DNA of 64,000 bases, taken from IMG/VR virus record IMGVR_UViG_3300030104_002535; one strand, given 5' to 3'. Positions 1-36,590 of this stretch are shown piece after piece. The notes below the pieces were generated by a model. That model saw only the letters and a program-made list of their open reading frames with translations. It ran no database searches and was not told the DNA's origin. The stretch is from an uncultured virus (IMG/VR IMGVR_UViG_3300030104_002535). Taxonomy: Duplodnaviria; Heunggongvirae; Uroviricota; Caudoviricetes. Positions within the stretch are counted from its first letter, which is position 1. Each line of letters opens with the position of its first letter. The translations under genes and the position numbers were made by a program.

Positions 1-1103
1 ACCATTTGTAAATGCTACACCATAATTAGTAGTGATTGAACTTGTTACACTTAATAATCCACCAATATCTATATTAGCACCAGTGACTATACTGCCACTA
101 AAAGTTGTATTACTATTGATATACATTTGTGCAGCACTGCCTGATAAATCTTTAACAGCAATAGCATCTCTACCTAAGTACATTAATCTTGCATTATCTT
201 CAAGTTTTAATAAAGAAGTACTACCACTACCAGTAGTTTTAACATGTAGTTTTGTACCAGGTGATACAGTTCCTATACCAAAATTCCCTGCATTTGTAAC
301 TGCTACTGTTGCTGCACTTGTAGTTCTATTGTATAAATACATTCTTGAAGCATCGTGTTCAATACTAAAAGCATTTCCACCACTTCTTTCAAATCTTAAT
401 TGCTGGTCTCCACTACTATTTAATCTTAATCCAATACCTGTATGAGTAATATCTAATTTATAACTTGGCGAGTTAGTTCCAATCCCAACCTTTCCTGCTG
501 ATGTAATTCTTAATCTTTCAGCACTCGCTGTTTGTAAAGATAGTGCAGCCGAGTCTTGTGCTATTAGTCTAAAATCACCTGTTCCTCTATGTCTAAAATC
601 GGTAGTTGCATTTGCACCACCAAATCTTATAAATCTTGCTCCATAATCTGAGTATGTAGTATCTCCAATTAAGTCTACAAAAGATGTTATATCTCCAGTA
701 GCACCACTTCCTACTTCAATACTTCTACCTGCAGATGTTGCTTTTAGTTCTAATACAGAGCCAGTAAAAATAAGAGAAGATTCTACTGTTGCTTCATCTG
801 AATCTTTGAAAGTAAGAACACCATTAGCAGTTGATCCATCAAATGATATTCCACTACTAAATCCTGTACTATCAAATGCTGTAAGTCTTATTTCGTCTAT
901 TTGTTTTCTTTTAAGTGTGCCATTATCTAAAACTGCTAATTCATCAGTATCTCCAGCTACAAGATCTGTCATATCGGTTAAATAACTTCCAAACTCGGAA
1001 GCATCTAAACTTATTGTAGCAGAATAACTACCACTTGTTGTATTGCTTTGTGATATGTCTAACGGATTACTTGCAGTAATACTTACACCAGTCATATCTC
1101 CAT
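1..1103. repeat. Diverged copy 1 of shared tail-fibre segment (copy 2 at 32607-33753)
   Basis: 1-99 identical to 32607-32705; near-identical to ~250; further similar blocks at ~480-700, ~780-895 and ~1000-1103. Confidence 0.95.
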
Positions 1104-2886
1104 TACCAGTGCCGTAACCAAATGATTCAATTCTGTCATTAATAGCTTTTGCTGTCATTAATAAATCATCACTATCACTAAATGATTCGGTGCTATCTGT
1201 TATATCGGCTGCTAATATTTGGTCTATACCTACTTGTGTTATATATCCATAACCTAAAATTTTATCTTCTACTGCAGCAGAAGTCATAATGTGAGCATCG
1301 TCATTAGTAAATTCACCTGAATCATCAATACCAGTAATAGTATTACCGTCCATTGTAAAACTTGCAAGACTACTAAATGTTTTAGCTCCACTAAATGTTT
1401 GAGTGCCTGACAAATGTGCTGTATCTGCGTCTAAGTATGCACTTGCAACAGTGCCACTTGTTATTAAATTTCCACTATGATTAGGTACGGATGTTAAGTA
1501 AGTTTCATTTGTATCTACTTTTAAACTACCACCTGCATATAATCTTATTCTATCATTAGTTAATTGTATATAAGTATTTGTGTCGCCAACGTGATAAATA
1601 ACGTGTGGAACATATAAATCTGCACCAAATATGGCATCATTATCAGCTTGCAATGTCAAAGATAATGATGGTGTTATAGTTGTTTGACTACCGCCTGTTC
1701 CTTGTGCGTTATTATAAAATTCTAAATCCCCACTACTTTGAAACCTTATTTGAGATGAGCCACCATAAAGCCCTTGTGTATAAGTATAAGCAGATGAGTT
1801 ATCAGTAGTAATAGTTGTATTGAAAGCTTGAATAAAATGTCTTCCACCACTATGTCTTTGTTCATAAAATTGTAATTGTCTATCAGTATTATTACCACCT
1901 CTTTGCAATCTTATTCTTTCTTTTATGCCATATGTGTTTGACGGGTCAGTCCCTTTGAAAAATAAAACACCTGCGTCATAAAGTAAATTAGACTCTGATT
2001 GTATAGCACTTGTTCCATTACCTGTTAATAAAGCGTTTGAAGTTAAAGAAGTTGCCCCTGTTCCACCATTTGCTACAGGTAAAGTTCCTGTAATATCTGT
2101 TGTGAGGTTTACAGCATTTCTTGTTATCTCTTGACCGCTTAATGTTAAATAATCTAAACTTCCTGCTAATGTTACATTTGTAGAGTTATCTGTTCCTGCT
2201 ACATCTACGCCTAAATTAGTTCTTGCGGTTGCAACATTAGTTAAATCAGATAAATTAGAAGCTTTAACTAATTTTTGCCCTAATGAAGTTGCGGTTGTTG
2301 TAGCAAAGTTTGCATCATCTCCTAATGCAGAAGCTAACTCGTCTAATGTGTCTAATGTGCTTGGTGCAGAGTTTACGATATCTGCTACTTCTGCATCAAC
2401 ATAAGTTTTTATAGCTTTGGCACTTGCTAATGTTGTGTGTGTTCCTGCTACTGAACTTATATCAGTATCTAATACCCCTGATTTAAAATTATCAACTTCT
2501 ATGTTAGAAAGAGTATTATTATCAGCATCAATCGTTTTATTAGTAAAAGTTAAAGTATTAGATGCGGTTGTATCTCCGCTTGATGAAATATCAATATTTC
2601 CATTAGTATTATCATAATTAGTTGAAACGTTAGTATAACTTCCTGTGGTAAGCATAGCCCCAACAACGTCTTGAATAAATTCTGTAATAGTATCTGTGCC
2701 TAAAAGAAAGTTCCCAGGCGTTGATATTTTAACTTTATTGCTCGCAATAGATAAATCAGAAGCCGTGCCATCGCCGTCATATAAAACTCTTAAATTTCCG
2801 TCAATACCTGCGGTTTCTCCAGTGTGAATTAACTGAACATACCCCTGATTTACGGGTGTATTCCCTATGTCTGTATTAGCACTCAT
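1..2886 (-). CDS. Tail fibre of phage A (N-terminal ~962 codons, runs off left edge; missing from ORF track)
   Basis: ATG at 2886 overlaps the upstream TAA (TAATG). Hand translation MSANTDIGNTPVNQGYV...APSTLDTLDELASALGDDANFA...NLSDLTNVATARTNLG contains classic fibre motifs. Same frame as the homologous part of ORF 30693-36590. Confidence 0.88.
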   Translation of the reverse strand, partial: MSANTDIGNTPVNQGYVQLIHTGETAGIDGNLRVLYDGDGTASDLSIASNKVKISTPGNFLLGTDTITEFIQDVVGAMLTTGSYTNVSTNYDNTNGNIDISSSGDTTASNTLTFTNKTIDADNNTLSNIEVDNFKSGVLDTDISSVAGTHTTLASAKAIKTYVDAEVADIVNSAPSTLDTLDELASALGDDANFATTTATSLGQKLVKASNLSDLTNVATARTNLGVDVAGTDNSTNVTLAGSLDYLTLSGQEITRNAVNLTTDITGTLPVANGGTGATSLTSNALLTGNGTSAIQSESNLLYDAGVLFFKGTDPSNTYGIKERIRLQRGGNNTDRQLQFYEQRHSGGRHFIQAFNTTITTDNSSAYTYTQGLYGGSSQIRFQSSGDLEFYNNAQGTGGSQTTITPSLSLTLQADNDAIFGADLYVPHVIYHVGDTNTYIQLTNDRIRLYAGGSLKVDTNETYLTSVPNHSGNLITSGTVASAYLDADTAHLSGTQTFSGAKTFSSLASFTMDGNTITGIDDSGEFTNDDAHIMTSAAVEDKILGYGYITQVGIDQILAADITDSTESFSDSDDLLMTAKAINDRIESFGYGTGNGDMTGVSITASNPLDISQSNTTSGSYSATISLDASEFGSYLTDMTDLVAGDTDELAVLDNGTLKRKQIDEIRLTAFDSTGFSSGISFDGSTANGVLTFKDSDEATVESSLIFTGSVLELKATSAGRSIEVGSGATGDITSFVDLIGDTTYSDYGARFIRFGGANATTDFRHRGTGDFRLIAQDSAALSLQTASAERLRITSAGKVGIGTNSPSYKLDITHTGIGLRLNSSGDQQLRFERSGGNAFSIEHDASRMYLYNRTTSAATVAVTNAGNFGIGTVSPGTKLHVKTTGSGSTSLLKLEDNARLMYLGRDAIAVKDLSGSAAQMYINSNTTFSGSIVTGANIDIGGLLSVTSSITTNYGVAFTNG

Positions 2887-3110
2887 TAATCAATATCTAA
2901 TTCTTTATAAAGCTTTTTATCTGACATTCTTTTTGTTCCCCTACCAATATCATCTGAAATAATAGTTGGGCTACTAATTAATCTAATAACATTACTGCTA
3001 TCTTTGCAATCATTTTCAAAATCACTGCATTTTTTAAATTTTTCGTCTTGCATAGACTGTTTGACTATATATGTCTTGTTGCATTCGCATTTATATTCGT
3101 ATAAAGGCAT
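2886..3110 (-). CDS. FmdB-like zinc-ribbon protein
   Basis: MPLYEYKCEC...C...C...RLISSP pattern; AAGGAG RBS upstream of ATG 3110 favours this start over 3170. Confidence 0.75.
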   Translation of the reverse strand: MPLYEYKCECNKTYIVKQSMQDEKFKKCSDFENDCKDSSNVIRLISSPTIISDDIGRGTKRMSDKKLYKELDID

Positions 3111-3143
3111 CTCTATCTCCTTAAAATTAGTTTCGTGAGGGTT

Positions 3144-3172
3144 ATATAGGGCTGAATAAATCAGCCCCATAT
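3144..3172 (-). terminator. Stem-loop downstream of capsid gene (terminator/attenuator or processing site)
   Basis: GGGCTGA-ATAAA-TCAGCCC inverted repeat with AT extensions; no strong U-tract. Confidence 0.5.
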
Positions 3173-3198
3173 ATTCGGTGTTTAGTCAATAAACTCTA

Positions 3199-4071
3199 TT
3201 AATCTACATTAACAAAGTTTACGATTCCTGCTGATGCTGAGTTCGCAGCTTGTGCAAGAACTGCACCAAACAGAACGTCTGCTACAACTGATGTTGCTAA
3301 GTGGTCAATGTCGTATGAACTTTGAACACGTGGAGCAATCTGTTGAGCAAAATAAACTGAATCTCTTTTAAAAATAGAAGCAGTTTCTGAAGTTGATGTT
3401 CCACCCTCGTCCCAATCAGTACTTGCGTAAAGTGGTAAGCCATAAGCAGAAATAATTCTACCTGTAGCATTAGGGTTTTCATTATCTCCACGCTTTTGAG
3501 CTTCTGTGAACTCGCCCAATGAAAGCATAGACATATATGATTTAGGTGAACAATACATAAAGAACTCTCCGTCAGCGTAATCGTGTCCTGCGTCAAGAAG
3601 CTTTTCTAATCCACTTCTAAATAATGCAGTAGTCATTACATCGTCTGTTGATAATCCTACGTTATTTGCACTCGCACCTTTAATAGTTGCGGCAATATAG
3701 CTTTCAACTTTTTTAGCCAAAGCGTAGCCCATTGATTGAGCATATGCGTTGAATAAGTCAGCTGATTCTTGGACTCTTACGATGTCTTCGATTCTTTTAG
3801 CTTCGTAGAAGTGTTGGTCAACTGTTAGTTGTCTTACACCATCTGTATTGTTAGTATATGTCACAGCACTTCCTGCACTTTTTGATGCAGCAGTTTCTTC
3901 TGCGACCTTAGGTATATTTAGTATATCCCCACCGCCTGCTAACATACTTGAGAAGTCGGAAACTTGATTTCTTAACTGAAATTTTCTTTCAGCATAATCT
4001 AAAATCGCATCTCTCCACATCTCAGGTATAAAATTTGCGGCGGTTGTCTTAGTTACATTTCCGTCTGCCAT
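3199..4071 (-). CDS. Major capsid protein, phage A (P22-coat-like, HK97 fold)
   Basis: NFIPEMW..., GDILNIP, ADVLFG motifs; follows scaffold; AAGGAG RBS. Confidence 0.85.
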   Translation of the reverse strand: MADGNVTKTTAANFIPEMWRDAILDYAERKFQLRNQVSDFSSMLAGGGDILNIPKVAEETAASKSAGSAVTYTNNTDGVRQLTVDQHFYEAKRIEDIVRVQESADLFNAYAQSMGYALAKKVESYIAATIKGASANNVGLSTDDVMTTALFRSGLEKLLDAGHDYADGEFFMYCSPKSYMSMLSLGEFTEAQKRGDNENPNATGRIISAYGLPLYASTDWDEGGTSTSETASIFKRDSVYFAQQIAPRVQSSYDIDHLATSVVADVLFGAVLAQAANSASAGIVNFVNVD

Positions 4072-4104
4072 TTTATTTACTCTCCTTAAAGATTAATGGT
4101 TTAA

Positions 4105-4665
4105 TTAGTTGTTATTTTTATAACCCTCTAATATCTGCTTCCAAAGTTTAGGATTCTTTTTAGCTTGTTCTCTATCTTCTTTGGTTAAATCTCCAAATTT
4201 GACATTTTGAGCAAACTTACCAGAACTCACTACTTCTTTTGCGTCTGATACTTGCACTTTATTCTTACTCAATCTTTCAATGTGCTTCTCTAATTTAAGA
4301 GTTGAGAGGTCTTGATATATTTCTTGGTCATCTTCTGAAAGTTGAGAGAGCAGATGTTCTCTTCTTTGCTTTTCCTGCATTTCAAACATTTCTACTTTCG
4401 GCTTTAAAGCTTCAAGTTCTTGTTGAGATGATTCATACAAAGTTTTGAATTCCTCTTTCGCTTCAAGTTGTTTTTTCTCTTGAAGTTTAAGATTTTCTTT
4501 GAGTTCGTTCAACTCAGCTTCTGCACTTTGTGCTCTTGTTCGATACTTCTTGCTTTCTGCAATTAAGCCACCGACTTCATTATTCGTTCCCTCAGGAACA
4601 TTAGTTTCCTTTGTAGCAGTTTCTACTACTTGTTCTTCTACTACGTTTTTATTTTCTTCGGACAT
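4105..4665 (-). CDS. Capsid scaffolding protein
   Basis: Acidic coiled-coil with ESKKYR...AE and EEFKTLYE motifs, directly before capsid gene. Confidence 0.7.
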   Translation of the reverse strand: MSEENKNVVEEQVVETATKETNVPEGTNNEVGGLIAESKKYRTRAQSAEAELNELKENLKLQEKKQLEAKEEFKTLYESSQQELEALKPKVEMFEMQEKQRREHLLSQLSEDDQEIYQDLSTLKLEKHIERLSKNKVQVSDAKEVVSSGKFAQNVKFGDLTKEDREQAKKNPKLWKQILEGYKNNN

Positions 4666-4680
4666 ACTGCCCTCCTGTTG

Positions 4681-5145
4681 TTATTTAATCACAATGTCTT
4701 TTGATGTATATTTTTTTATATTTTTTTCATATAATTTTTCTACATCTCTCATTACTTTTAGCTTATTGCTAAGAGTTAAGTCATAAATATCATATCTTTT
4801 TTGGTTTCCTAAAACTATCTCTCCCCTATCATAAGTAATAATACCTGTATTTTTACGGGAACTTGCACGCATACCTCTAAATGTTCTGCCTGTTAATTTC
4901 ATATTTACAAAAGCAGTTTCGGTGTCGGTTGATTGGTTTTCAAAAGCTTTTAATTTTTTTCCTGTTCTTAAACTTGTCATACCACGGGCTTTGTATTTTT
5001 TATATGCTTCACTTCTATATTGCCTACCGCTTTTGCCGTTTTGAAATTTACCTCTTGAAGCGTCAAGCTGAATTATATCTATAATATCACTTGCCAACGT
5101 TTTCATAAATTTGTTTGACGTTTTTACTACTTCGAATAACTTCAT
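4681..5145 (-). CDS. Putative neck/head-completion protein (virion morphogenesis family)
   Basis: Basic protein with Y...K...VNMKLTG motif inside the head cluster; start chosen at ATGA overlap. Confidence 0.45.
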   Translation of the reverse strand: MKLFEVVKTSNKFMKTLASDIIDIIQLDASRGKFQNGKSGRQYRSEAYKKYKARGMTSLRTGKKLKAFENQSTDTETAFVNMKLTGRTFRGMRASSRKNTGIITYDRGEIVLGNQKRYDIYDLTLSNKLKVMRDVEKLYEKNIKKYTSKDIVIK

Positions 5146-5858
5146 AAAGCTCTTACCCAATCGTGCCTGCAATTATATCCACCACGCCTACCGAAGCCCT
5201 GAAAACCTTTTATTCTTAAAGCGTTAATTTCGCTTATAGTCATTGGACCTTTTTCTTTAACAAGTTTTAAAACTTCTTTACAAGCAGGTCTAACTTTTTC
5301 ATCTTTTGGACCTATGTATGTAAATTTAGCATTAGGAAACTGCTGAAAAGCGTTAGCTCTTACTGTATTACTGAATGTTGCGAAAGCATCGTTTATCAAA
5401 AAAGAAGCTTCACTACTACTAATAAAAGTTCCTACACCAAAGCTTGAACTTAAACCGCTTATAATTTGACGATTAGTTTGCCCTGTTATAATACCCCTTA
5501 ACATAGCATTTCTTAATTGCAAAGTATATTGCCTTGCAGTTCCTGTTAAATAACCTAATTCAAAGTTCTTTAACTCCCTGACGATAGAAATACTTGCTAT
5601 TGGCAATCTTGCTAACTCCCTACTGCTTAATTCAGCATAGATAGAAGCTATCTCTCTTTCAAACGCCTTATTAACATCTTCAATTAAATCATCATACCCC
5701 AAACGACGCATCTCGTTAAAAAAATTAATCGTCTTAGCTAATTGCATTAATTCTGTTCCCTTGGCTTTCTTAATACCTGGAACTATTGTTTGCAGTCTGT
5801 TGATTAATTGTTGTTGAATGGTTTGTATTTCTTTATTATAAAAACCTAAATCAGCCAA
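5142..5858 (-). CDS. Head morphogenesis protein (SPP1 gp7/MuF-like)
   Basis: D..VRP.C and GGYNCRH C-terminal motif; follows portal. Confidence 0.7.
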   Translation of the reverse strand: MADLGFYNKEIQTIQQQLINRLQTIVPGIKKAKGTELMQLAKTINFFNEMRRLGYDDLIEDVNKAFEREIASIYAELSSRELARLPIASISIVRELKNFELGYLTGTARQYTLQLRNAMLRGIITGQTNRQIISGLSSSFGVGTFISSSEASFLINDAFATFSNTVRANAFQQFPNAKFTYIGPKDEKVRPACKEVLKLVKEKGPMTISEINALRIKGFQGFGRRGGYNCRHDWVRAL

Positions 5859-7182
5859 CTTCTTGTCCTAATCTCTCTAATATTGATTGATTCTCATCAG
5901 CTTGTTGTGGTGCTTCTTCGTCAATAGTATCAATCATTTCGTTAATCTCGTCTTCCTGTAAGTCAGGATTCTTTTTTCTTAAATAACTTTTTCTTGTTTC
6001 TAAATCATTAGCAAAAGCCCAGGTGTAATATTGTATTTCCTCGCCCATAGACATTGGCACTTCTCTTTCAGCAAAGTCTATACTAAATTGGTCATCAATA
6101 TTTATTCCGCCTGATACTTCACATATTCGTTGTGCTATTTTAAATTGGTTTCTTTCAAACGGGCGATAAATTTGTTCTATATCACTTCTCAATGCGTCCA
6201 TTAAATCTATTTGACTCATTTTTTTAGATAACCCAGATTCTTGACCTTTATCAGTCCAATTAATTCTTACGTTATTAGCTTGTGCTATACTATCTACCAT
6301 ATACTTTGTAGATTCAATCATACCATTTATATCTGCGTTTGGACTTGCATAACTAAAATTAGCACCCTCGGGAAGAACTAATGCTTTGTCTTGCCCCATA
6401 GATATACGTTGTTCGGTATCTAAACCTGTAAACAATGGTTGCCCTAACATAAATCTTCCGTGTAATGCTAACTCTGTCAATAAAATATTTACACTTCTCA
6501 TACCATCTACTAAATCGTTAGCACCCTCTCTAAAATAATCTCTTGTGTATGCGTGCCTATGTGCTATGTTAAATGGTAAGATATCTCCATACGGGTTTTT
6601 ATTATCAGGAACAATAGAAGTTATTTTACCTCTACTGCTAATCATAAAATGTTTTCCCTCCATATCCTCGGTATCTTTACTCCAAAACATATATTGAGCG
6701 TCTTCACTTCTTGCATTAACTTGACTTTCCGCCTGATACATAATAGCAAACGGCTCATCTTCATTAGGTTTAAAAAATGGTGTAAAAAAGTGGATAGGTC
6801 TATATTTAAGCTTTTGTTCATTGTCGTCCCAATGAGTGTATAGTGCTTCTGTTCCTAATAAATAAGTAAGTTGTTCAAACTGCTTCATAAAAGAATCAAA
6901 TTCTCCAATAACTTCATTATATTTATCATTGTATCTAATCGGGTTTTCTTGATATACCAAAGCCCTGCGACTTATAATATTTCTTACAAGGTTGATATAC
7001 ATAGGTGGAACTTGCGAAAGACTTTCGCTGTTAAAATATTTTTTTAAATCTTGTTCTAAGTTTACTCCCTCATAATAGTCAAGTAAACGTTCTCTCTCGA
7101 CCATTTGATTGTCATAATTTTCTTGGATAGTTTCCATTAGTAAATTATGTAGCATCTGTTCTGTTAAATTATAAATAATCAC
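5851..7182 (-). CDS. Portal protein (SPP1-like)
   Basis: 443 aa, LDYYEG near N-terminus, NPYG..PF, ESG motif; downstream of TerL. Confidence 0.85.
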   Translation of the reverse strand: MIIYNLTEQMLHNLLMETIQENYDNQMVERERLLDYYEGVNLEQDLKKYFNSESLSQVPPMYINLVRNIISRRALVYQENPIRYNDKYNEVIGEFDSFMKQFEQLTYLLGTEALYTHWDDNEQKLKYRPIHFFTPFFKPNEDEPFAIMYQAESQVNARSEDAQYMFWSKDTEDMEGKHFMISSRGKITSIVPDNKNPYGDILPFNIAHRHAYTRDYFREGANDLVDGMRSVNILLTELALHGRFMLGQPLFTGLDTEQRISMGQDKALVLPEGANFSYASPNADINGMIESTKYMVDSIAQANNVRINWTDKGQESGLSKKMSQIDLMDALRSDIEQIYRPFERNQFKIAQRICEVSGGINIDDQFSIDFAEREVPMSMGEEIQYYTWAFANDLETRKSYLRKKNPDLQEDEINEMIDTIDEEAPQQADENQSILERLGQEVG

Positions 7183-7361
7183 GATTCATACCTCTTTTGC
7201 GTTTCTCCTAAACTTTCATCATAGCAGAATCCCTCACTAATTCTATTGATTAATTGTCTTTGTGTTTTATATGCTTCTTTTTGGATATATACTGCATAGA
7301 TTATAAAAGCTATAATAGTTGTTATAATCCCTGTTGTAAATCCTAATAAAAATATTACCAT
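7179..7361 (-). CDS. Small membrane protein
   Basis: N-terminal hydrophobic helix; overlaps both neighbours. Confidence 0.6.
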   Translation of the reverse strand: MVIFLLGFTTGIITTIIAFIIYAVYIQKEAYKTQRQLINRISEGFCYDESLGETQKRYES

Positions 7362-8557
7362 TCAATAATTTCCATATTTCCTTTGAATCCATAGCGATAC
7401 TCCATAGGATACATTAATGCATCTAAATAATGCGATAATGTTTCTGTTTTTGTAATTCTATTGTTTTCAAACGTTGTTAATTCTAAATCTCTTATTAAGT
7501 TCTTGCAAGACGGCTTAATAAATAAACGCCTTTTTCCAGAAGCATCTTCAAGCATTCTGTTTAAAGAGTTTAATCTATCTTTCTGCGTTGGGTTGGCTTT
7601 CTTGCTTATGACTGTAAACCCTGCTTCCTGTAAAATTCTATGGTCGGACTTAGTGCTATTACTTGTTCTTGATTTCCCTGCGGGGTCAGGATAACAAGGT
7701 AAATCAGGTGCAATTTTTTTCATCTTATCTGCTAATTCAAACGTGTTTGAGTTCTGTAAACCTATTTCATCAAAAACATATACTTCGCCTGCTGTATTTT
7801 CACACATTAAAACTGCGGTCATATAAGAAGCTACACCGAAGTCAATCCCCCAGAACATACGTGTTGTAATATCTAATTCTTTGCAGTGTATTTCTCTATT
7901 GAAGTTGTATGCACATTTATTTTGTGCGGTTTCAAAGGAAGCTAAATACTCTTGCCTAAACGTCATTGCGTCAAGGTTTTTTTTAGCACTATCTACTTCT
8001 TCCTGCGGTATAAAACCTCCGTCAATAGTTGTAAATTGCCAACTTCTATAATCGCTATCATCAGACTGACCTTTAACGAACATATCGTAAAAGTGGTTTT
8101 GAATGCCTGTTGGTGTTCCTACAAACAAAGCTTTTCCGCCTGTTTCTGCTAACATAGGTTGAACAATCTCTCCCCATACATTAGGTTTCATAAAAGCGTA
8201 TTCATCTAAGACACATTGTGTTAGTGATACACCACGCAAACTATCCTCTTTATCAGCACCCTTTAACTCTATCTTAGCGTTGTTTTCAAGAGTGATAGAT
8301 AGTTCGCTTTCATTTATCTTAGCGTTTTTTTCCCGAAATATTCTTTTAAGTATATTCCAAGCTACCATTTTTGCCTGACGATATGTTGGGTATATAATCC
8401 AACGTCTTTCATCGGGCTTTAATTCTTTTTGCATTAGCCATAGCATAGAAAAAAACGTTTTGCCCCATCTACGCCCACAAACTAAAACTTTATAACGACT
8501 CCCGTCGCTTAATATTTCTTTTCTTGAAGCATCAATTTTCCACTTCATCAAAATCAA
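7355..8557 (-). CDS. terL: Terminase large subunit, phage A
   Basis: Walker A GRRWGKT, LRG...VLDEYA Walker B, GTP motif, GIDFG nuclease motif, HYLDALMY. Confidence 0.95.
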   Translation of the reverse strand: MILMKWKIDASRKEILSDGSRYKVLVCGRRWGKTFFSMLWLMQKELKPDERRWIIYPTYRQAKMVAWNILKRIFREKNAKINESELSITLENNAKIELKGADKEDSLRGVSLTQCVLDEYAFMKPNVWGEIVQPMLAETGGKALFVGTPTGIQNHFYDMFVKGQSDDSDYRSWQFTTIDGGFIPQEEVDSAKKNLDAMTFRQEYLASFETAQNKCAYNFNREIHCKELDITTRMFWGIDFGVASYMTAVLMCENTAGEVYVFDEIGLQNSNTFELADKMKKIAPDLPCYPDPAGKSRTSNSTKSDHRILQEAGFTVISKKANPTQKDRLNSLNRMLEDASGKRRLFIKPSCKNLIRDLELTTFENNRITKTETLSHYLDALMYPMEYRYGFKGNMEIIEW

Positions 8558-8825: not shown

Positions 8826-8846
8826 TTCCCTGTTAATTCCCTGTTA

Positions 8847-24776: not shown

Positions 24777-24793
24777 ATTAACTCCTGTTTATT

Positions 24794-25885: not shown

Positions 25886-25886
25886 T

Positions 25887-27073: not shown

Positions 27074-27138
27074 TATTTCTTCTTACCTTTTTTCATTTTC
27101 TTTTTTTTCTTTTTACCTTTTCCATAATGACTTGGCAT
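27073..27138 (-). CDS. Poly-Lys micropeptide, 21 aa (not in ORF track)
   Basis: MPSHYGKGKKKKKKMKKGKKK; AAGGAG RBS; TAATG coupling. Confidence 0.7.
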   Translation of the reverse strand: MPSHYGKGKKKKKKMKKGKKK

Positions 27139-27140
27139 AT

Positions 27141-28127: not shown

Positions 28128-28281
28128 TTTTAAATTCTCCTATTAATTCTGGAACTTCTAAATTTTCTATTATGCGATGTAATTCAGGCTCAAAATGTGC
28201 TTTTTCTCTATCAGATATTGTTTTAGCTTTTAACATAGCAGATAGTTCTTTTAATTTTTTTATTGCTTCGCCTAATTCCAT
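28111..28281 (-). CDS. Small hypothetical protein, 56 aa (not in ORF track)
   Basis: MELGEAIKKLKELSAML...; fills the gap in the operon. Confidence 0.55.
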   Translation of the reverse strand: MELGEAIKKLKELSAMLKAKTISDREKAHFEPELHRIIENLEVPELIGEFKNEYLS

Positions 28282-29048
28282 TGTTTTCCCTTTATTATTT
28301 TATTGTTCCAAGTTGTTATTCCATCGTGAATATCTAATGTTATAAGATTAAAATATCCATCATCAAAAAAGTCAATGACGCCTACGTTATGAGTCCAATT
28401 AACTTTTCTTCCTTTTAAAAAATCTTTTTTTATTTTACACAAGCAACCCATACTTTGAGCAATATGCACTCCTGATATATGTTGCACCACACTTCTTTGG
28501 CAATCGTGGGTATGCCCATAGATTATATTACAACCTAAGTTTTGGACTGTTGTCCTGCTATGGTTTATAGAACTATAATGCCCGCCGTGATAAGCGTAAA
28601 GTTTGCTGTTTTCTATTTTAAATATTTCCCCATAAGGATACCAATCATAACCCCTTTCTTTTATTTTAAAAAGATTTTCAGGTTTATATTGTTCTAAATA
28701 AGGGTTTTCTTCAACAAAAGCATTATACCAATTATCGTGGTTTCCCATAGCTAAATACTTTTTTTTGCAACCTACTTCTTTTAAAGCATAATCAATTCTA
28801 TCCATATGCATATTAATTTCTTCTGCTTCTTTATCAATCATTGGTAATTGATATTCTAATGGTGGGCGTTTTCTTCTACTCCAACGCCAATGAGAAACAT
28901 ACTCTCCCTCAGCAAAATCGCCTAAATTAATAAATATGTTTGGTTTAACTTGCTTAATTACTTCCAATGCACAACTAAAAGCTTCTTCATCGTGTAGTGG
29001 AAAGTGCATATCACCAAATATTATTCCAGTCTTTTTAACTTTTCTCAT
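28272..29048 (-). CDS. Calcineurin-like metallophosphoesterase
   Basis: GDMH, LGDF, GNHD, YHG, GHTH motifs. Confidence 0.9.
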   Translation of the reverse strand: MRKVKKTGIIFGDMHFPLHDEEAFSCALEVIKQVKPNIFINLGDFAEGEYVSHWRWSRRKRPPLEYQLPMIDKEAEEINMHMDRIDYALKEVGCKKKYLAMGNHDNWYNAFVEENPYLEQYKPENLFKIKERGYDWYPYGEIFKIENSKLYAYHGGHYSSINHSRTTVQNLGCNIIYGHTHDCQRSVVQHISGVHIAQSMGCLCKIKKDFLKGRKVNWTHNVGVIDFFDDGYFNLITLDIHDGITTWNNKIIKGKQWN

Positions 29049-29518
29049 ACGTCTAATGCCCTCTTATACCAACCATAATAAAATCGTTCTTGTTCTGGTT
29101 GTTGTTGAACTATCTTTGCGTAAAATAAACATCTATACGCCTGTAAACGCCCTTTTGTAAGTTTAACGGCACTTTGTATCGTTATATCGCCGATAAGCCC
29201 GTCAACAGCTATTTTAGAACGTTTATTGCTATTTATAGCTTGTTGAAGTATCTTAGTTGCCCTGGATTTACCTAAATTGACGCACATATCAAAATATGTT
29301 GCCTGTAAATGTTCAGGTAGCTTTTCAGCTTTTGAGGGCTTCCAATAATCTCTATAATAGATTGCGATAGCATCTTCTTTTGATAAATTTTTAATATCAA
29401 CGTTAGGATACCACCTTTTTGATATGCCAAAGTTAGTTTCTCCACCTTTATCAAGTGAATCATTAACATATCCGCCCTCGTGCTGAATTACTTTATTAAT
29501 TATTTCTTCAAAACTCAT
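29045..29518 (-). CDS. Endolysin, GH108 family with peptidoglycan-binding domain
   Basis: HEGGYVND..D.GGETNFGIS, YW, VDG.IG..T, F..GW..R; start MSFEE at ATGA overlap with the holin stop. Confidence 0.9.
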   Translation of the reverse strand: MSFEEIINKVIQHEGGYVNDSLDKGGETNFGISKRWYPNVDIKNLSKEDAIAIYYRDYWKPSKAEKLPEHLQATYFDMCVNLGKSRATKILQQAINSNKRSKIAVDGLIGDITIQSAVKLTKGRLQAYRCLFYAKIVQQQPEQERFYYGWYKRALDV

Positions 29519-29883
29519 ACAGACTTTTTGACTTTTTCGTACGTACGCATTCCCGCCATACCTAAAAGCCCCATCAAGACTGTTGTCAATGTTCCCATAT
29601 CGAACTCTGGAAGTTCTATCTGCATACCATTTGCTGTTAGTATAAATAGCAAAAATGGTTGCAAAACATAATGATATGCGAACGCACTTGCACAAACCCA
29701 ACCTAAAAATGGACGCCACCTTACGAGGATTCCTGTTTGCCCTGCTTCAACTTTATTAACTTCAAGCTGTGCTTTGTTAATCTCTTGCATAAGCTGTGCT
29801 TTTTCTGCTTTGTCAAGTGTAAAGTCATCTATTTTATCTGCTACTTTATCTATGATTCCTGCTACAACATTTAATTTAGGCAT
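29515..29883 (-). CDS. Holin (3TM/GTA-holin-like)
   Basis: NKVEA...WRPFLGWVC...LMGLLGMAGMRTYEK; directly upstream of lysin. Confidence 0.85.
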   Translation of the reverse strand: MPKLNVVAGIIDKVADKIDDFTLDKAEKAQLMQEINKAQLEVNKVEAGQTGILVRWRPFLGWVCASAFAYHYVLQPFLLFILTANGMQIELPEFDMGTLTTVLMGLLGMAGMRTYEKVKKSV

Positions 29884-30100
29884 CTTTTTCTTCTTTCTTA
29901 TCATCTTTTTTATTTACAGATTCAGTAAGCATTTTTACAAAGGCTCCCTCTGCAACGCTTTCTTTATCTATTTGAAACATTAATTGACTTTTATTTCTAC
30001 GACAAGTATCAATGTGTTCTACTAATATTTGTTGTTCCTGTGATAACGAATCAAAATCATAGTCTTTTTCATCAATCGTTATTTTTCTTTCTTCACTCAT
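29876..30100 (-). CDS. Small coiled-coil protein
   Basis: AGGAG RBS; ITID.KDY...LS.EQ pattern, loosely like 51005-51238. Confidence 0.6.
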   Translation of the reverse strand: MSEERKITIDEKDYDFDSLSQEQQILVEHIDTCRRNKSQLMFQIDKESVAEGAFVKMLTESVNKKDDKKEEKDA

Positions 30101-30130
30101 TATTAACTCCTGTTTATTATTAAATAAATT

Positions 30131-30469
30131 TTATCTTGGTAAATGTCCTGCTGTTTGACAACTTCTTCCAACAGGGAACTCAGACATTTTATGTTGGTTG
30201 GGGTCTGTTTGGTCAAATGAGCTATCAAGGTTGTTAGCCACAAGCCAATTAGCTAAATACCCCTCTGATATTGTAATGCTTTCGCCAAACCCCAATGTTT
30301 GAACATTCGGATTACTATTGAAAGACATACTTGGTGTTCCTATTGATAACCCTCTTAAACTGATATCTGTTGTTTGATTTAAATTACAAGATTCAGCAAT
30401 ATCATTTTTTAACCTTAGCCCAACTGAGCCACTTGCCCCTGCGTGATTAGGTATTACAGGTATTGACAT
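30131..30469 (-). CDS. Hypothetical protein downstream of fibre
   Basis: TAATG-coupled ORF. Confidence 0.6.
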   Translation of the reverse strand: MSIPVIPNHAGASGSVGLRLKNDIAESCNLNQTTDISLRGLSIGTPSMSFNSNPNVQTLGFGESITISEGYLANWLVANNLDSSFDQTDPNQHKMSEFPVGRSCQTAGHLPR

Positions 30470-30708
30470 TATTCAGCATCTCTAATTGTTTCTAATTCTG
30501 TAATTTCTTGGTTTACTGCTGCTAATTGTGATTCAATACTAGCTTTTTTTGTTTCGGCATTTGTCAACGCTTCGCTTAAAAGATTATTTTCTGTATAATC
30601 TAATACTTCAATATCATTACCTTCTGCATCTATTGCAGATCTTGTATGTTTAATTTGAACCATTTTGACGTCATCGCCATTTGGTATTTCTGTTATGATT
30701 TTAGGCAT
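30469..30708 (-). CDS. Small coiled-coil protein (possible fibre assembly factor)
   Basis: Overlaps the fibre stop. Confidence 0.55.
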   Translation of the reverse strand: MPKIITEIPNGDDVKMVQIKHTRSAIDAEGNDIEVLDYTENNLLSEALTNAETKKASIESQLAAVNQEITELETIRDAE

Positions 30709-33700
30709 TTTTTTAATTCCTCTATTTCTTGTTGTTGTTCTTGAATTGCTTTAATTAAAACAGATACCATTTTTCCGTAGTCCACTGTTTTAAATTCTTT
30801 TTCTGTTTTAAGATCTTTATGTTCTTTCACTATTTCAGGTATTATTTCTTCTATTTCTTGTGCTATAACACCAATGTCGTGGGCCTTATCTCTTTTTTCT
30901 TTCCAATCATATTCTACTGGATTGATTTGCAATACTTCTTTAAGCCCGTAAGATATTGGCTTGATATTTTCTTTTAATCTTCTATCGGATCCTGTGCTAC
31001 TTGAAAAAGCCACTACGTCATTATCAAAATGTCCTGCACCGCTTGTTGTAAATAAAACTTCTGGTCCACCTAAGGCGTCATCACCAGCATCAAATTTTAA
31101 ATCAGCATTATTAGTATCTATACCAAATCTCCAAGCTACTACACCTTGTCTTTCCATTTTAATATTACACAAAGCATTTCCAGGATTTATATGTAATAAA
31201 GCATCAGGATCATTATGCCCAACCGCTATACGCCCTGTGCCGTCTTCAATTAATAATCTTGTAGCAACACCATTTTCATCTATTTGCAAGTTTCCAGCAT
31301 TATTAAATATGTCATACTGATTTGTAGTTCCTTTAATATGTAAATATGAAGCATTTCCTGATCCAGTACTTTCTATTTTTAAATTAGCTGTATTATTAAC
31401 AACGTGCAGCTCACTATCGGGGCTTCCTGTACCAATTCCTACACGATTATTCCCGCCGTCTACAAATAACATATTAGCATCGCCATTAGATTCAACTCTA
31501 AAATCACAATTTTTACTATGCTCATTAAATACTACATTAGAATTATATACTCCAAAGGTATTAATATCTGCACCATAAAAATAGTCGCCCCTTCCATTAC
31601 CTACTTCTTCTCCCGTTACACTTGGGCTTGATTCTTGTGTTAATGGATTTTCAATACTCCAATTAGGATTATATTTATCTCTTGTAAACATAACACGCAT
31701 TGATTGAGTGTTATTACCTTGATCTGTGCTAACAGAAAAATATGCTTGTAATTCTGTTGTGGATCCAGTTTCTATAATTCTGACTTTTGTAATATCATTT
31801 GTTCTGTTTACAATATTACACCTGTTTAAATTACCGCTCCAATCTACTTCAAAATCACAAGTAAATGTTCTAGGGCTATAATAACCACCAGTAAATCCAA
31901 TACTAATCGTACCGCCACCTCTTGCATTTGCACTAGAAGCACTTGCTATTGTATACCAACCTGACGCTGTTGGGCTTGTTACACCTGCATAATCTGTGAC
32001 TAAAACACTTCTACTTCTGTTGGATCCCATAGCGTCGCCAATATTAATTGGAATTTTTGCAGAGTCTATAATAATAGTTCCGTCCATTTTATAAGAATTA
32101 CCAATGTCAATATGATTTGCAATAGTGACATTTCCAGATCCGTCAAATGTGACTCTATCTGTGCCGTTATCTACATCTCTAAATCTAAGGCTTGCACCAT
32201 TTGTTCCAATAGTAGTGATTGCCCACCTGTCTGTTCCGCTTGTTCTAAATCTTATACCTGCATTACCATTATGAGTTGCGGTTTCGGTTATAATACCGCC
32301 ACTACCAGCACCAGTTCCAGCTTCTTGAACGTGTAGCTTCGCTGCTCCCGAAGTAGTACCAATCCCGACATTACCTGCTGCCATTAAATTAATATCATAA
32401 CCACCATAAGTTCTAATTTCTAAATCATTACTAACTCTATTAATTACAGCATTTGTGTCTTCAAATTCTACTTGGTCGCCATGTCTTGTATTTTTATGTA
32501 TAGTAGTTCTTGTAGTTCCATAGGTTAACAGCATAGCATTATTGGTAGTATCTCTTAGATATAATACATCTTCTCCACTATTATTATATTGAAGAAAGTT
32601 AGTATTACCATTTGTAAATGCTACACCATAATTAGTAGTGATTGAACTTGTTACACTTAATAATCCACCAATATCTATATTAGCACCAGTGACTATACTG
32701 CCACTGAAAGTTGTATTACTATTGATATACATTTGTGCAGCATTATTTGATAAATCTTTAACAGCAATAGCATCTCTACCTAAAAACATTAATCTTGCAT
32801 TGTCTTCAAGTTTTAATAAAGAAGTACTACCACTACCAGTAGTTTTAATGTGTAGTTTAGTATCTGGCGATGTTTCCCCTATGCCCAATCGTCCAGTTCC
32901 AGTAAGTCGCATTTGTTCACTACCTGCTGCATAAAATCTCATTACTTCTGCACTATCTTGAAAGTAAATACCCTCTCCTGCATAACCACCACTATTACCT
33001 ACATGACCACCATTTGTATCTGCTGCTATAATAATTCCTGCGTGAGAACTATCTGTATCATTAAATCTTGCTAAATTACTCCCGTCACTATTTGATACGT
33101 GCAACACTCCTGTTGGGCTAGTATTACCAATCCCAACTTTTCCTGCTGAAGTAATTCTTAATCTTTCAGTACTTCCTGTTCGCAAAGATATTGCAGCTGA
33201 ATCTTGTGCTAAAAGTGTTAAATCACCAGTACCTCTATGCATAATTCTTGTTTCTGCATTAGCACCACCATACCTAATAAACCTACCACCATAATCTGTA
33301 TATGTAGTATCTCCAATTAAATCTACAAAAGATGTTACATCTTGCGTTGCACCTAAACCTATTTCAATTCTTCTATTATCTGTTGTTGTTAAAAGATTTA
33401 ATGCAGCACCGTCAAAAGTAAGTGCTGATTCTACTGTTGCCTCATCTGAATCTTTGTATGTTAATAAACCGTTAGCAGTAGAGCCGTCAAATGATATGCC
33501 TGTACTAAAACCTGTTGCATTAAATGTAGTAAGTCTTATTTCACTCATTGCTTTTCTTTTTAAAGTTGTATCGCCACTATCAATAACTAATAATTCATCA
33601 GCCCCAAGATTGTTAGAAGTCATGTCAGTCAAATATCCTTGAAACTCACTAGCATCTAAACTTATTGTAGCAGAATAACTACCGCTTGTGGTATTGCTTT

Positions 33701-36590
33701 GTGATATGTCTAACGGATTACTTGCAGTAATACTAACACCAGTCATATCTCCACTACTAGAATTAGCATCTACATACGCCTTAACACTTTGTTGTGTAGG
33801 TATATGCTGGTCACTATCAGAAGCCATATCATCTTCATCTTTAGTTGGAAGCCTATCTATATCAAAAGCTCCAGTTGTAATTTTACTTGCTGGTAAACTA
33901 CCTACATAAGCAGCAGCTATTGCTGTTCCTTGCCAAGTACCAGTACTAATAGTTCCAACAGAAGTAATACTTGTTGAATTGTTTGAGTGAAAGATTTTAT
34001 TACCATATCTACCTATACTATCAAAATTAGTTTCACTATCTCTACCAGTTCTAAAATATAATTCATCGCTGTAATGTGCATAAAGTTCTAAACTTCTTGT
34101 ACTTCCACCTACTCCAGTAAAAGAAACTAATAAAGTACTATGTCCAGTTTCATTTACTTGATATAGTCCAGTTGCTTTTGCATTTTCTGTATCAGTTCCA
34201 CCAGTTAAACTGCCAAGATTTTCTTTAAAAATTGTTGAAGGTATTCTTGCTGTATCAAATGTACCTGAAGTTATCTTGCTGGCTGCTAAATTTGCTATTC
34301 TATCTGCTGCTACTGTACCACTCGTAATTAAGTCTCCACTATGGTTTCCTAAATTTAATGTTTGTACGTGATTTCCAGCATTTGTTGTTACACTTCCAGA
34401 TAATCCAGTGCCAGCAGTTATTGCAACTTGTGTAATATCTCCATTGTTATTGGTAAAAGGTAAATCTTCTACAAATATTTTTTTAAGACCTACACCATTG
34501 TCGTGAAACATTAAAGTATCACTTGATGCGTCTAAACTATTAGCTGAAGATAATCCATCTATGTTAACAGATATAGCATCTGTTGCCACGCTAATACCAG
34601 AACCAGCTCCTACGTGGATATTTCTACTTGCTTCTATAGTTCCACCACCTGTTAATCCTGCTCCTGCAAAAATTGTTACTCCACTATGGTCTACGTGCTC
34701 TTCAGCTACAAAGCCACTTAAATTATCGTGCACAATTTCTGAATCGTTAGTACTTACTGAATTTGTTGCAACGCTTATACCAGTACCAGCACCTACTGCC
34801 AAGGTAACTCCACCTGAGCTACCACTACCACTTAATCCTGCACCGCCAGTAATAGATGTAATTGTACCAGAACTATTTGTAAAAGGTAAATCACTTACCG
34901 TTCCTATTTGAACAGAATTAGAATTTGATGCATCAAAAAATATTATATGGTCATTTGCTGCTATATCATCAGATATAGTAGAAAGTGCACTATAAGCTAT
35001 GTCTACTGCATTAGTAGTTACAGCTAAACTACTTGAACCTACTGCAAGTGTCGCTGTACCTGAACTTGTTATTGCAGAACCGCCACCTGTTAGTCCGTCA
35101 CCACCAGTGACTGTAACAGATGTTACTGTACCAGCATTAGATGTAAATCCTGAATCGTTGTTAAAACCAGATAAATTAATATTACCTTTTGTAAGTTTTT
35201 TCTGGGCATTAGAACTATCAACTACTGCAAAAAAGTCTCCGTCTCCGTCTGATACGGATGTGTTAAGTTCTGATAAGTCTACATCTATAGTTGGTGTAGC
35301 TCCCTCTCCACTATTGTTTTGCAAATCAATTAAACTACCTGCAGTCAATGTGGCTACATAATTACCAGTTGTTTTTGTTCCTAATGCTACGCTATTATTA
35401 GCAATCGTTGTATCAATACTTACTGCTGCACTACCATCAAAACCTGCTCCTGGTGTTACACCTGTTATATCTCCAGTTAATGTTATATCTCTAGCATTTG
35501 CAAGCTTAGTTGCTGTTCCTGCATTACCTGAAGCATTACCAGTTACATTACCTTCTAAATCTGCAACTAATGTTCCAGTAGATATAGTTAAGTTCCCAGT
35601 AGCACTTGGTGTTGAGGTTGTTGTACCTAAAGTAAATTTATCAGCAGATTCGTCCCATATAATTGCTGCATTATTTCCAGCACTACCTCTTTCTATAATT
35701 AATCCTGAATCATTTGTATTATTAGATACTCCACGATTTAATCCTATAATATTATCTGATACATCTAAATTTGTTTGGTTTACAGTAGTTGTAGTTCCAT
35801 TAACTTGTAAATCTCCAGTAATAGTTAAGTTATTGTCTAATTGTACTGCACCAGTAAATCTACCAGTTCCATTAACATCTAAAGTATAACTTGGTGTATC
35901 ATCTAAAATACCTACTCTTGAATTTCCAGCATCTCCAAATATTAGTGCATTAAAACCATCATCGAAAACCAAAAAATCATAATCAGCAGCATGTGTATTA
36001 AATTGAGCTCTATTAGGTGTAAATGTCATTCTTGCCTGGTTATGGCTAATAATTTCAAAATTAGTTGAAGTCGTAGTTCCTATTGACCCTAAACCACCTG
36101 CACTTTGCATAATTGTAGTAGCAGGTGTATTATTGCCTACATTATCTGTTACAGATAATCTTGGTGTATTAGCATCAGTAAAATCTATATCTCCAGTAAA
36201 GATAGGACTTGCTAAAGTTTTGTTTGATAATGTTTGAGTGCCTGTAAGTGTTACTACTGTAGAATCAATAGATATATCATCTGCATTAGCATCTATACCT
36301 GTACCGCCAACTACGTCTAAAGTAATCTCTCCAGAAAGACCGCCACCAGTAAGACCAGCACCAGCTATGATTTCATGAATGTTTCCTGTTTCGTCTGTAT
36401 CTGTTGACAAGGTAGGAGATACCTGTGTAAATTCTTGTTGATATACAATACCATTTCTTTTTTCTTGTTTAAATAGTACACCTTTTTCAAGAAAAGAAAT
36501 AGACTCACCTTCTCTTATGTTTGATATAGAAGGTCGTACCTTAAAGAAGGAGTCAATATTGTTGACTAAGTGTTTGCCAGATTTAGGCAT
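30693..36590 (-). CDS. Long tail fibre with C-terminal peptidase S74 intramolecular chaperone (possibly chimeric: phage B N-terminus, phage A/shared C-terminus)
   Basis: AG.GL.G shaft repeats, repeated VGIG...P...LHV units, SDRRLKENIK...IGVIAQE...VDY...LIKAIQEQQ. Confidence 0.9.
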   Translation of the reverse strand: MPKSGKHLVNNIDSFFKVRPSISNIREGESISFLEKGVLFKQEKRNGIVYQQEFTQVSPTLSTDTDETGNIHEIIAGAGLTGGGLSGEITLDVVGGTGIDANADDISIDSTVVTLTGTQTLSNKTLASPIFTGDIDFTDANTPRLSVTDNVGNNTPATTIMQSAGGLGSIGTTTSTNFEIISHNQARMTFTPNRAQFNTHAADYDFLVFDDGFNALIFGDAGNSRVGILDDTPSYTLDVNGTGRFTGAVQLDNNLTITGDLQVNGTTTTVNQTNLDVSDNIIGLNRGVSNNTNDSGLIIERGSAGNNAAIIWDESADKFTLGTTTSTPSATGNLTISTGTLVADLEGNVTGNASGNAGTATKLANARDITLTGDITGVTPGAGFDGSAAVSIDTTIANNSVALGTKTTGNYVATLTAGSLIDLQNNSGEGATPTIDVDLSELNTSVSDGDGDFFAVVDSSNAQKKLTKGNINLSGFNNDSGFTSNAGTVTSVTVTGGDGLTGGGSAITSSGTATLAVGSSSLAVTTNAVDIAYSALSTISDDIAANDHIIFFDASNSNSVQIGTVSDLPFTNSSGTITSITGGAGLSGSGSSGGVTLAVGAGTGISVATNSVSTNDSEIVHDNLSGFVAEEHVDHSGVTIFAGAGLTGGGTIEASRNIHVGAGSGISVATDAISVNIDGLSSANSLDASSDTLMFHDNGVGLKKIFVEDLPFTNNNGDITQVAITAGTGLSGSVTTNAGNHVQTLNLGNHSGDLITSGTVAADRIANLAASKITSGTFDTARIPSTIFKENLGSLTGGTDTENAKATGLYQVNETGHSTLLVSFTGVGGSTRSLELYAHYSDELYFRTGRDSETNFDSIGRYGNKIFHSNNSTSITSVGTISTGTWQGTAIAAAYVGSLPASKITTGAFDIDRLPTKDEDDMASDSDQHIPTQQSVKAYVDANSSSGDMTGVSITASNPLDISQSNTTSGSYSATISLDASEFQGYLTDMTSNNLGADELLVIDSGDTTLKRKAMSEIRLTTFNATGFSTGISFDGSTANGLLTYKDSDEATVESALTFDGAALNLLTTTDNRRIEIGLGATQDVTSFVDLIGDTTYTDYGGRFIRYGGANAETRIMHRGTGDLTLLAQDSAAISLRTGSTERLRITSAGKVGIGNTSPTGVLHVSNSDGSNLARFNDTDSSHAGIIIAADTNGGHVGNSGGYAGEGIYFQDSAEVMRFYAAGSEQMRLTGTGRLGIGETSPDTKLHIKTTGSGSTSLLKLEDNARLMFLGRDAIAVKDLSNNAAQMYINSNTTFSGSIVTGANIDIGGLLSVTSSITTNYGVAFTNGNTNFLQYNNSGEDVLYLRDTTNNAMLLTYGTTRTTIHKNTRHGDQVEFEDTNAVINRVSNDLEIRTYGGYDINLMAAGNVGIGTTSGAAKLHVQEAGTGAGSGGIITETATHNGNAGIRFRTSGTDRWAITTIGTNGASLRFRDVDNGTDRVTFDGSGNVTIANHIDIGNSYKMDGTIIIDSAKIPINIGDAMGSNRSRSVLVTDYAGVTSPTASGWYTIASASSANARGGGTISIGFTGGYYSPRTFTCDFEVDWSGNLNRCNIVNRTNDITKVRIIETGSTTELQAYFSVSTDQGNNTQSMRVMFTRDKYNPNWSIENPLTQESSPSVTGEEVGNGRGDYFYGADINTFGVYNSNVVFNEHSKNCDFRVESNGDANMLFVDGGNNRVGIGTGSPDSELHVVNNTANLKIESTGSGNASYLHIKGTTNQYDIFNNAGNLQIDENGVATRLLIEDGTGRIAVGHNDPDALLHINPGNALCNIKMERQGVVAWRFGIDTNNADLKFDAGDDALGGPEVLFTTSGAGHFDNDVVAFSSSTGSDRRLKENIKPISYGLKEVLQINPVEYDWKEKRDKAHDIGVIAQEIEEIIPEIVKEHKDLKTEKEFKTVDYGKMVSVLIKAIQEQQQEIEELKKCLKS
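32607..33753. repeat. Diverged copy 2 of shared tail-fibre segment
   Basis: Direct comparison with 1-1103. Confidence 0.95.

Follow-up and report, generated by a model that had tools for sequence, protein, structure and literature searches.

A 64-kb stretch of an uncultured-virus contig probably joins two unrelated phages through a tail-fibre module that they have in common

Exchange of tail-fibre modules between unrelated phages is a known kind of event, and the locus described here is one further example of it. The closest published parallel is the Alteromonas pair of schitovirus A5 and myovirus V22, which share host-recognition modules (Nat Commun 2023;14:6517, PMC10579305). The two cases have in common morphologically distinct phages, homologous fibre modules, a small open reading frame (ORF) behind the fibre and a C-terminal end of the intramolecular-chaperone type, and there too recombination between unrelated phages was the inference. 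They differ in that a whole module, fibre plus chaperone, is shared by A5 and V22 and was tested at the bench, whereas here only one shaft repeat module is near-identical, as read from sequence alone. Contigs that are chimeric between genomes are also known from short-read assembly of metagenomes and viromes (BMC Genomics 2014;15:989, PMC4247695; PLoS One 2011;6:e19984, PMC3100316). Both subjects meet in the stretch analysed here, 64,000 nucleotides (nt) of the uncultured-virus record IMG/VR IMGVR_UViG_3300030104_002535 (the window), in which an ORF of 1965 amino acids (aa) encoding a tail fibre spans the joint between two phage genomes, A and B.

The window contains no N and carries two unrelated virion gene sets (ORF map, PHROGs and Pfam), with packaging and capsid genes of different families. 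An earlier note on this DNA, a model's reading of the letters alone, had described two such sets of terminase, portal and capsid genes, and the PHROGs and Pfam matches bear it out. Outside the fibre, the A and B genomes are alike over one gene pair only, at ~70% identity, and left of the B fibre the window holds only genes syntenic with A-type phages. The parts of the layout are as follows.

1..32606: phage A, one full unit, circular or circularly permuted, probably siphovirus-like (closure in scaffold L093 and run X5; collinearity with G008)
32607..64000: phage B, partial genome, probably podovirus-like, continuing right of the window (Pfam SU10_MCP and P22_portal)
1..99: copy 1 of the exact 99-nt repeat S, in phage A context; in L093 it sits between window 32606 and 100
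32607..32705: copy 2 of S, the proposed false join, with A sequence on the left and B on the right
1..1109: patchy fibre homology, A side (families D1-D3; 92%, 77% and 89%)
32607..33760: patchy fibre homology, B side (families D1-D3; from the alignment)
30693..36590, minus strand: 1965-aa ORF, a probable hybrid of B fibre (aa 1-1295), S (aa 1296-1328) and A fibre end (aa 1329-1965)
1..2886, minus strand: A fibre residues 1-962, starting at 2886 and leaving by the left edge (PHROG tail-fibre matches)
30693..32606, minus strand: A fibre residues 963-1599 plus stop, with the Peptidase_S74 chaperone domain; identical to residues 963-1599 of protein P0121 and read as the end of the 1965-aa ORF
32706..36590, minus strand: N-terminal part of the B fibre, with an anchor at 36185-36590 common to B-type relatives

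Comparison of the two copies of S gave the picture drawn in the earlier note: 32607-32705 is an exact copy of window 1-99, and base 100 is the first mismatch. An exact repeat of 99 nt is too long to arise by accident in 64 kb and is thus not due to chance. Identity resumes past base 100 for 36 more nt, so that 135/136 nt of the whole repeat match. Beyond it the homology is patchy (1-282 versus 32607-32888, 92%; 474-773 versus 33122-33421, 77%; 968-1109 versus 33619-33760, 89%); the note had followed it to about 1103/33753, and we see it on to about 1109/33760.

Is the joint at S present in any virus? Our data suggest that the join and the 1965-aa ORF are an assembly-graph chimera of two separate, co-occurring phages, a reading to which we give a probability of about 0.82. 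The fibre module that is near-identical in A and B would form a single de Bruijn node with two entries and two exits. The assembler would have begun at the last k-mer of this shared node (99 nt), made one tour of the A circle, come back into the node and taken the B exit. Such a walk would yield a terminal-to-internal repeat of 99 nt, exactly one A unit, and an ORF fusing the front of the B fibre to the end of the A fibre. The window starts exactly 99 nt ahead of the base at which A and B diverge, as it should if a graph edge leaving the shared node begins with the last k-mer of that node. The 99 nt would then be the assembler's k, which is how the earlier note had read them. Because they represent the overlap only, the shared node may extend further left, perhaps to ~32365. 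Two complete A-type records of 34 kb, G004 and G005 (which hold L009 and L015), carry 'direct terminal repeats' of exactly 123 and 127 nt. Overlaps of these two lengths match the final k values of common assembly pipelines, and the repeats look like k-mer overlaps of circular paths rather than biological repeats.

The window resembles described assembly chimeras in that genomes are joined through a stretch of at least k, the contig ends at the repeat and one component is traversed for one unit. It differs from them in that its components can be separated by outside data (L093, X5 and protein look-ups) and in that a fibre module with a biological meaning, instead of some generic repeat, forms the shared node. 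The window appears to be the first 64 kb of a 74,946-bp contig, with position 1 as the contig start. The gene for a 440-aa protein starts at window 63936 and runs past the right edge, and the longest contig recorded for this protein has 74,946 bp, which places at least 1.26 kb of the contig to the right of the window.

Phage A is a complete 32,606-bp genome that closes on itself. Joining position 1 to 32606 is in frame: the 2886 nt at the left edge make 962 codons, 32606 is the first base of codon 1329, and 962 + 637 gives a fibre of 1599 aa. An independent 8921-bp scaffold, L093, retrieved with a 60-mer of S, follows window 24501-32606 (1 mismatch) and then directly window 1-815 (0 mismatches), with a joint identity of 99.99%. 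The same joint is found in run X5, which belongs to another study than runs X1-X4. Here record 29, a Logan contig of 3697 nt and depth 37.8, covers 29867-32862 and has the copy-1 letters at 32706, 32743, 32745-7, 32784-5 and 32802, and a loose end at 33542 equals window 895 onward. Depth in X5 is 30-46 on phage A versus 0-2.5 on 34-44 kb. The closed A joint together with near-zero depth of B means that A exists closed and without B, a result that comes from X5 alone. Of the words of 28500-37500, a fraction of 0.45-0.46 is present in runs X6-X9, and 0.456 of this stretch belongs to A. Another loose end in X5, at 28271 (equal to window 22215 onward), was considered as a 6-kb deletion and set aside; it is explained by the 38-nt repeat D4 and by a comparison limited to 24000-43999.

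Proteins and relatives agree with this closure. P0121 (1599 aa) is identical at 959/962 residues to the product of 1-2886 and is identical to residues 1329-1965 of the 1965-aa ORF; this intact A fibre, as P0121 and its twin P0214, was found on at least three other contigs. The A relative G008 has 29,896 bp and is 94% complete by CheckV, and its two ends share a 100-nt overlap that contains one mismatch. It runs collinear to A over the full circle, from tail block and lysis genes to 30.9 kb, fibre, 2.6 kb and head, and L065 and L074 show that order too. Relatives of the A major capsid protein (MCP) are encoded in 295/298 candidate stretches of viral contigs, and five such records were examined: their lengths lie at 29.9-34.3 kb, CheckV rates them 94-100% complete, and terminal repeats are present in two. 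Since these capsid-protein relatives are complete at ~30-34 kb, A is gene-complete. The earlier note had proposed just such a circle, with an in-frame fibre of about 1,600 aa, and L093, X5, P0121, G008 and the CheckV results for relatives all uphold it.

B-type contigs without A also exist. One is G001, with 28 kb and 59% completeness, which agrees with window 46320-64000 at 95-99% and extends past the window; another, of 40.6 kb, carries the exact 709-aa protein that lies directly upstream of the B fibre. Both G002 (71.6 kb and 100% complete) and G003 (34.9 kb and 74% complete) keep synteny with the window over 36.2-54.1 kb and lose their resemblance to it a few hundred bases inside the fibre gene; for L085 and L086 the synteny breaks off at ~window 36185-36197. 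Behind the fibre, G003 has ORFs of 82, 105, 181, 276, 217 aa and so on, and G002 has ORFs of 81 and 356 aa, a 98+127-aa pair, and ORFs of 519, 392, 99, 438, 168, 470, 2901 and 927 aa. Only two of these post-fibre genes have homologues among the A genes left of the fibre, namely the 79-82-aa ORF and a thioredoxin-like paralogue (window 21596-21982 versus the 127-aa ORF of G002, 54%). Because the B-type relatives carry post-fibre genes of their own, the end of the B fibre and the genes downstream of it have been replaced in the contig by all of A.

In a collection of about 15 billion proteins, the exact 1965-aa ORF has a single source, the contig of 74,946 bp. The suspicion voiced in the earlier note that it is chimeric therefore gains ground: the hybrid has no support outside this single contig. 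A real junction, in which a siphovirus and a podovirus recombined at the conserved GIGT-motif fibre module to give a cointegrate or a B-type phage with the distal half of A's fibre, is unlikely. If the junction were true, it would be a swap of host-recognition parts across morphotypes caught in the act, as abundant as its parents. In one form of this reading, the ORF itself would be real: B would recently have taken A's whole distal fibre (30.7-32.7 kb), and only the continuation into A would be a walk through the ~2-kb shared stretch. Fibre segments are indeed swapped freely in this group, as at least 10 A-type relatives have fibres that match window 35520-35816, within the B fibre, at 82-90% identity and 104 of the 124 candidate viral-contig stretches (contigs of 4-297 kb) encode relatives of the B fibre middle. 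B-type fibres, moreover, end in a homologous S74 domain that is followed by an 81-82-aa ORF. Yet the exact ORF stands on one contig even though the identical 709-aa gene upstream is on four others (longest 40,607 bp), and depth in run X1 points the same way.

Depths in the public runs are those of Logan contigs, not of reads, with 8 pieces listed per run and 291 others unlisted. The pieces of X4 repeat those of X3, so that the two count as one, and uncovered stretches in Logan contigs (for example X1 32743-32802) carry no weight.

X1 depth, pieces listed: A 72.1, 68.8 and 67.7; B 78.2, 83.9, 81.4 and 88.5; B fibre 59.6
X3 depth, pieces listed: A 7.97, 5.76 and 5.9; B 6.1, 6.2, 6.81 and 5.5; B fibre 6.06

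The X1 piece at 31140-32269, the supposed end of the B fibre, has A's depth, 67.7, where a stretch carried by A and B alike should reach their summed depth of ~150. This argues against B carrying it alongside free A. The comparison of depths is the one that the earlier note had proposed, and in the X1 contigs the piece sides with A, unlike the B pieces listed outside the fibre (78.2-88.5). The sole X1 contig over 32706 has a depth of 131.8, about A plus B. An X1 loose end departs from the window sequence at 32365, in frame, as IGEVSPETK, where the window reads GIGTTSGAAKLH. IGEVSPETK is the start of a next fibre module, and this loose end cannot be assigned to B. The bin 32004-32670 has a depth of 111.2, which by arithmetic fits a doubling from ~32365 onward. 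All three observations hint, if weakly, at a shared node that reaches further left than the 99 nt. A doubling that fits only from ~32365, together with a new module starting there, counts against B carrying the whole distal stretch, and we regard a real 1965-aa ORF as quite improbable. No piece bridging S is among those listed in X1, X3 and X4.

A true cointegrate, ranked below a chimera in the earlier note, is in our judgement very improbable. It would have arisen by a single crossover of the A and B circles at the fibre module in a co-infected cell, giving the order B-left - S - A - S - B-right, with the assembler breaking at S. One A unit between direct copies of S and then B is exactly the single-crossover layout, the depths of A and B are nearly equal in X1 and X3, and B's own uninterrupted fibre is on no contig found. 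The layout, however, does not discriminate, because the de Bruijn graph is the same as for two circles. A's closed joint is present in L093 and, without B, in X5; the hybrid ORF is confined to its one contig, and the reciprocal hybrid joint (B-left - S - A-start) was not seen. In X1 the depths of the B pieces listed outside the fibre do not overlap those of the A pieces (67.7-72.1). Head-full limits are such that a 32.6-kb insert would not fit the B capsid, nor the B genome that of A, and a molecule of A plus B would probably be larger than either capsid allows. Two adjacent prophages in a bacterial chromosome would also put two complete-looking virion modules on one contig, a reading to which we attach next to no credence: no integrase, tRNA or host gene was found in the 64 kb, the MCP has no relative in the genomes of 185,579 bacterial and archaeal species, A is exactly one unit bounded by a fibre repeat instead of attachment sites, and its relatives are free 30-34-kb viral contigs with terminal repeats.

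Several points weigh against the assembly-graph chimera. The end of the B fibre joined to S was not found in any data searched. An exact 60-mer of S matched no viral contig and a single metagenome contig, one that belongs to A, and protein searches for B's own full or partial fibre returned none that was near-identical, the best non-A match being 78% identical over 39% of the region. Logan contigs break at repeats and cannot bridge S in either direction, and 32269-33687 is uncovered by the pieces listed in X1. The near-equal depths of A and B (68-72 versus 78-88 in X1, 5.8-8.0 versus 5.5-6.8 in X3) would suit one molecule and are the chief argument for it; they may equally be what keeps coverage-aware assemblers from telling two paths apart. 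Finally, the first base of the contig and the assembler's k are themselves deduced. Of two loose-end consensus strings used as patterns in viral contigs, one gave no match. The other matched L174, a different phage whose likeness to the window is confined to a short S74-domain motif.

Each fibre is a chain of modules, and the modules begin with motifs of the GIGTxSPxxKLHV type (at aa 1153, 1236 and 1718 in B, and at aa 801 and 870 in A). The near-identical part opens at one of these motifs, which is GIGETSPDTKLHI at aa 1236 of B and GIGTVSPGTKLHV at aa 870 of A. In BLASTP the A fibre aligned with the 1965-aa ORF only from A residue 564 and B residue 918 onward, with other segments giving weak motif matches (E 1e-4 or worse), which agrees with the unrelated N-terminal anchors of the earlier note. 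Its claim of locally identical fibre DNA in a siphovirus and a podovirus stands for 135/136 nt, but the shared part is mid-fibre (aa 1236-1409 of 1965) and not the distal tip, and the morphotypes come from family matches. The stretch across the junction is ~90% conserved in P0240, the fibre of another phage. As judged from the sequences, the near-identical shaft module common to a siphovirus-like and a podovirus-like phage is real and is a case of recombinational exchange between unrelated phages. Since the shared part is a shaft module, receptor-binding exchange and a shared host remain a matter of inference. A and B may have a receptor or host in common, as is only indirectly suggested by their co-occurrence (both are present in X1 and X3), their similar composition (GC content 0.328 versus 0.351; tetranucleotide r 0.92) and a paralogous gene pair.

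Two older comparisons bear on these fibres. Haggard-Ljungquist et al. in 1992 reportedly described the transfer of tail-fibre segments among the unrelated coliphages P2, Mu, lambda and T4. As there, local high identity lies within the fibre genes of otherwise unrelated phages; unlike there, the phages are uncultured and marine, and the fibres have GIGT-motif modules with a Peptidase_S74 end. Like endosialidase-type fibres or spikes with a C-terminal intramolecular chaperone, the 1965-aa ORF (residues 1868-1922, E 3.8e-18) and most relatives contain PF13884 (Peptidase_S74). Unlike in those fibres, autocleavage and trimer folding are only predicted, and the S74 domain is the end of the A fibre, not demonstrably that of B.

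A small ORF accompanies the fibre in both types of phage.

30469..30708, minus strand: 79-aa ORF overlapping the fibre stop, with a homologue after the fibre in A-type and B-type phages

It shares 45% identity with its G003 counterpart, the 82-aa ORF that follows the fibre there (G002 versus G003, 77%), and its region has DNA homology to L085, L086, L045 and L065. The 79-82-aa ORF overlaps or abuts the fibre stop also at L085 17570-17815 and L086 18932-19180. No Pfam family matched it; a role in fibre assembly is possible. A and B (21596-22255 and 39359-40051, minus strand) each have a cassette of two genes, coding for 127/128 aa and 88/98 aa, and the B relative G002 has the cassette twice (45676-46059 and 56224-56607). 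The larger proteins are 57% identical between A and B, and have an N-terminal hydrophobic stretch and, by eye, a putative thioredoxin-like fold that lacks the CxxC motif. No PHROGs family matched the proteins of this cassette.

Gene set B and the protein next to the B fibre are as follows.

50242-50997: B TerS (PHROGs/Pfam gene set B)
48123-49709: B TerL (PHROGs/Pfam gene set B)
46082-48058: B P22-type portal (Pfam P22_portal, 2.9e-49)
43875-45245: B SU10-type MCP (Pfam SU10_MCP, 2.2e-26)
36590..38719, minus strand: 709-aa B virion protein, directly upstream of the fibre; 8 of 18 candidate viral-contig stretches encode relatives

The 709-aa protein has a weak Atlas lead to P22 gp10-like Phage_stabilise clusters (0.93). 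PHROGs matched no tail tube, sheath or tape-measure family in 32.6-64 kb, where B is incomplete; B is thus probably podovirus-like, going by family matches and leads and not structures. The earlier note had remarked on the lack of lysin and internal virion genes to the left of the B fibre. This holds in the window but is a weaker point than it appeared, as a circular B would hold them past the right end of the contig. The B portal is 22% identical to its nearest relative, one uncultured record, and no host can be named from it.

The 440-aa protein of the 74,946-bp contig is present, letter for letter, in G001, but the contig, of which about 65.3-74.9 kb lie beyond that gene, is in none of the 90% clusters of the next proteins of G001 (84, 1522, 614, 282 and 181 aa). 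Their absence means that the end of B's late block differs from that of G001, despite 96.5% DNA identity up to 64000. An estimate that the contig ends just short of the B fibre stop, with B at ~45 kb (from the collinearity of G001 and G003), was dropped, as the contig lacks those clusters. B may have ~47 kb, like G001 and G003, or ~72 kb, like G002. In G002 the late block ends with a 2901-aa protein followed by one of 927 aa (30428-39133, minus strand). At the corresponding place G001 has proteins of 614 and 1522 aa, which have no detectable similarity to this pair and for which no Pfam family matched. B also encodes a gamma-glutamyl cyclotransferase-like protein (49675-50079), a glutamine amidotransferase (55581-56741) and an amidoligase (56731-58761) by PHROGs, which suggests a small-molecule or peptide-modification set.

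Phage A has the following genes outside the fibre.

7355-8557: A TerL (PHROGs/Pfam gene set A)
3199-4071: A MCP (PHROGs/Pfam gene set A)
29515-29904: A holin (PHROGs/Pfam gene set A)
29045-29719: A GH108 endolysin (PHROGs/Pfam gene set A)
22266..24134, minus strand: A tape-measure-like protein, 622 aa (PHROG 973, E 3.5e-16; three more tape-measure families)
24794..25885, minus strand: putative A tail tube protein, 363 aa (nearest Atlas clusters 0.97-0.98; a lead only)

The tape-measure-like protein scores 39.1 bits with Pfam TMP_3, under the cut-off of 41, and 31-35% of the members in the Atlas clusters nearest to the tube candidate have PF18906 (Phage_tube_2). No tail sheath family of PHROGs matched in phage A. 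By these family matches and leads, rather than by structures, A is probably siphovirus-like. Its gene order is terminase, portal, capsid, fibre, holin/endolysin, metallophosphoesterase, tail tube, tape measure and distal tail. It is unusual for the head module to be separated from the tail module by fibre and lysis genes, and G008 has this order as well. Three genes stand in a row on the minus strand at 8847-11081: a ParB-like/DNA-methyltransferase-N-terminal protein (10476-11081), a Tet_JBP 2OG-Fe dioxygenase (9547-10479; Pfam E 1.2e-25) and a glycosyltransferase (8847-9590) that matches the PHROG of beta-glucosyl-HMC-alpha-glucosyltransferase. The row looks like a cytosine hypermodification cassette. 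The nearest cultured relatives of the A MCP are remote, 24-27% identical to the MCPs of cyanobacterial podoviruses, and no host can be named from them; megablast of window 1-25000 and 25001-50000 against cultured phages gave no match.

These results mean that a public viral contig of 74.9 kb is probably two phages, and that calls of genome size, completeness, taxonomy and host range made on it would be wrong. The 1965-aa 'fibre' is probably a fusion made by no virus. The window is a worked example of how a module of ~100-340 nt common to co-occurring phages leads to a lollipop-shaped contig, and of how such a chimera can be exposed without reads, by means of outside contigs and exact protein look-ups. 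The biology that remains is modest: one more case of fibre-module exchange between unrelated phages.

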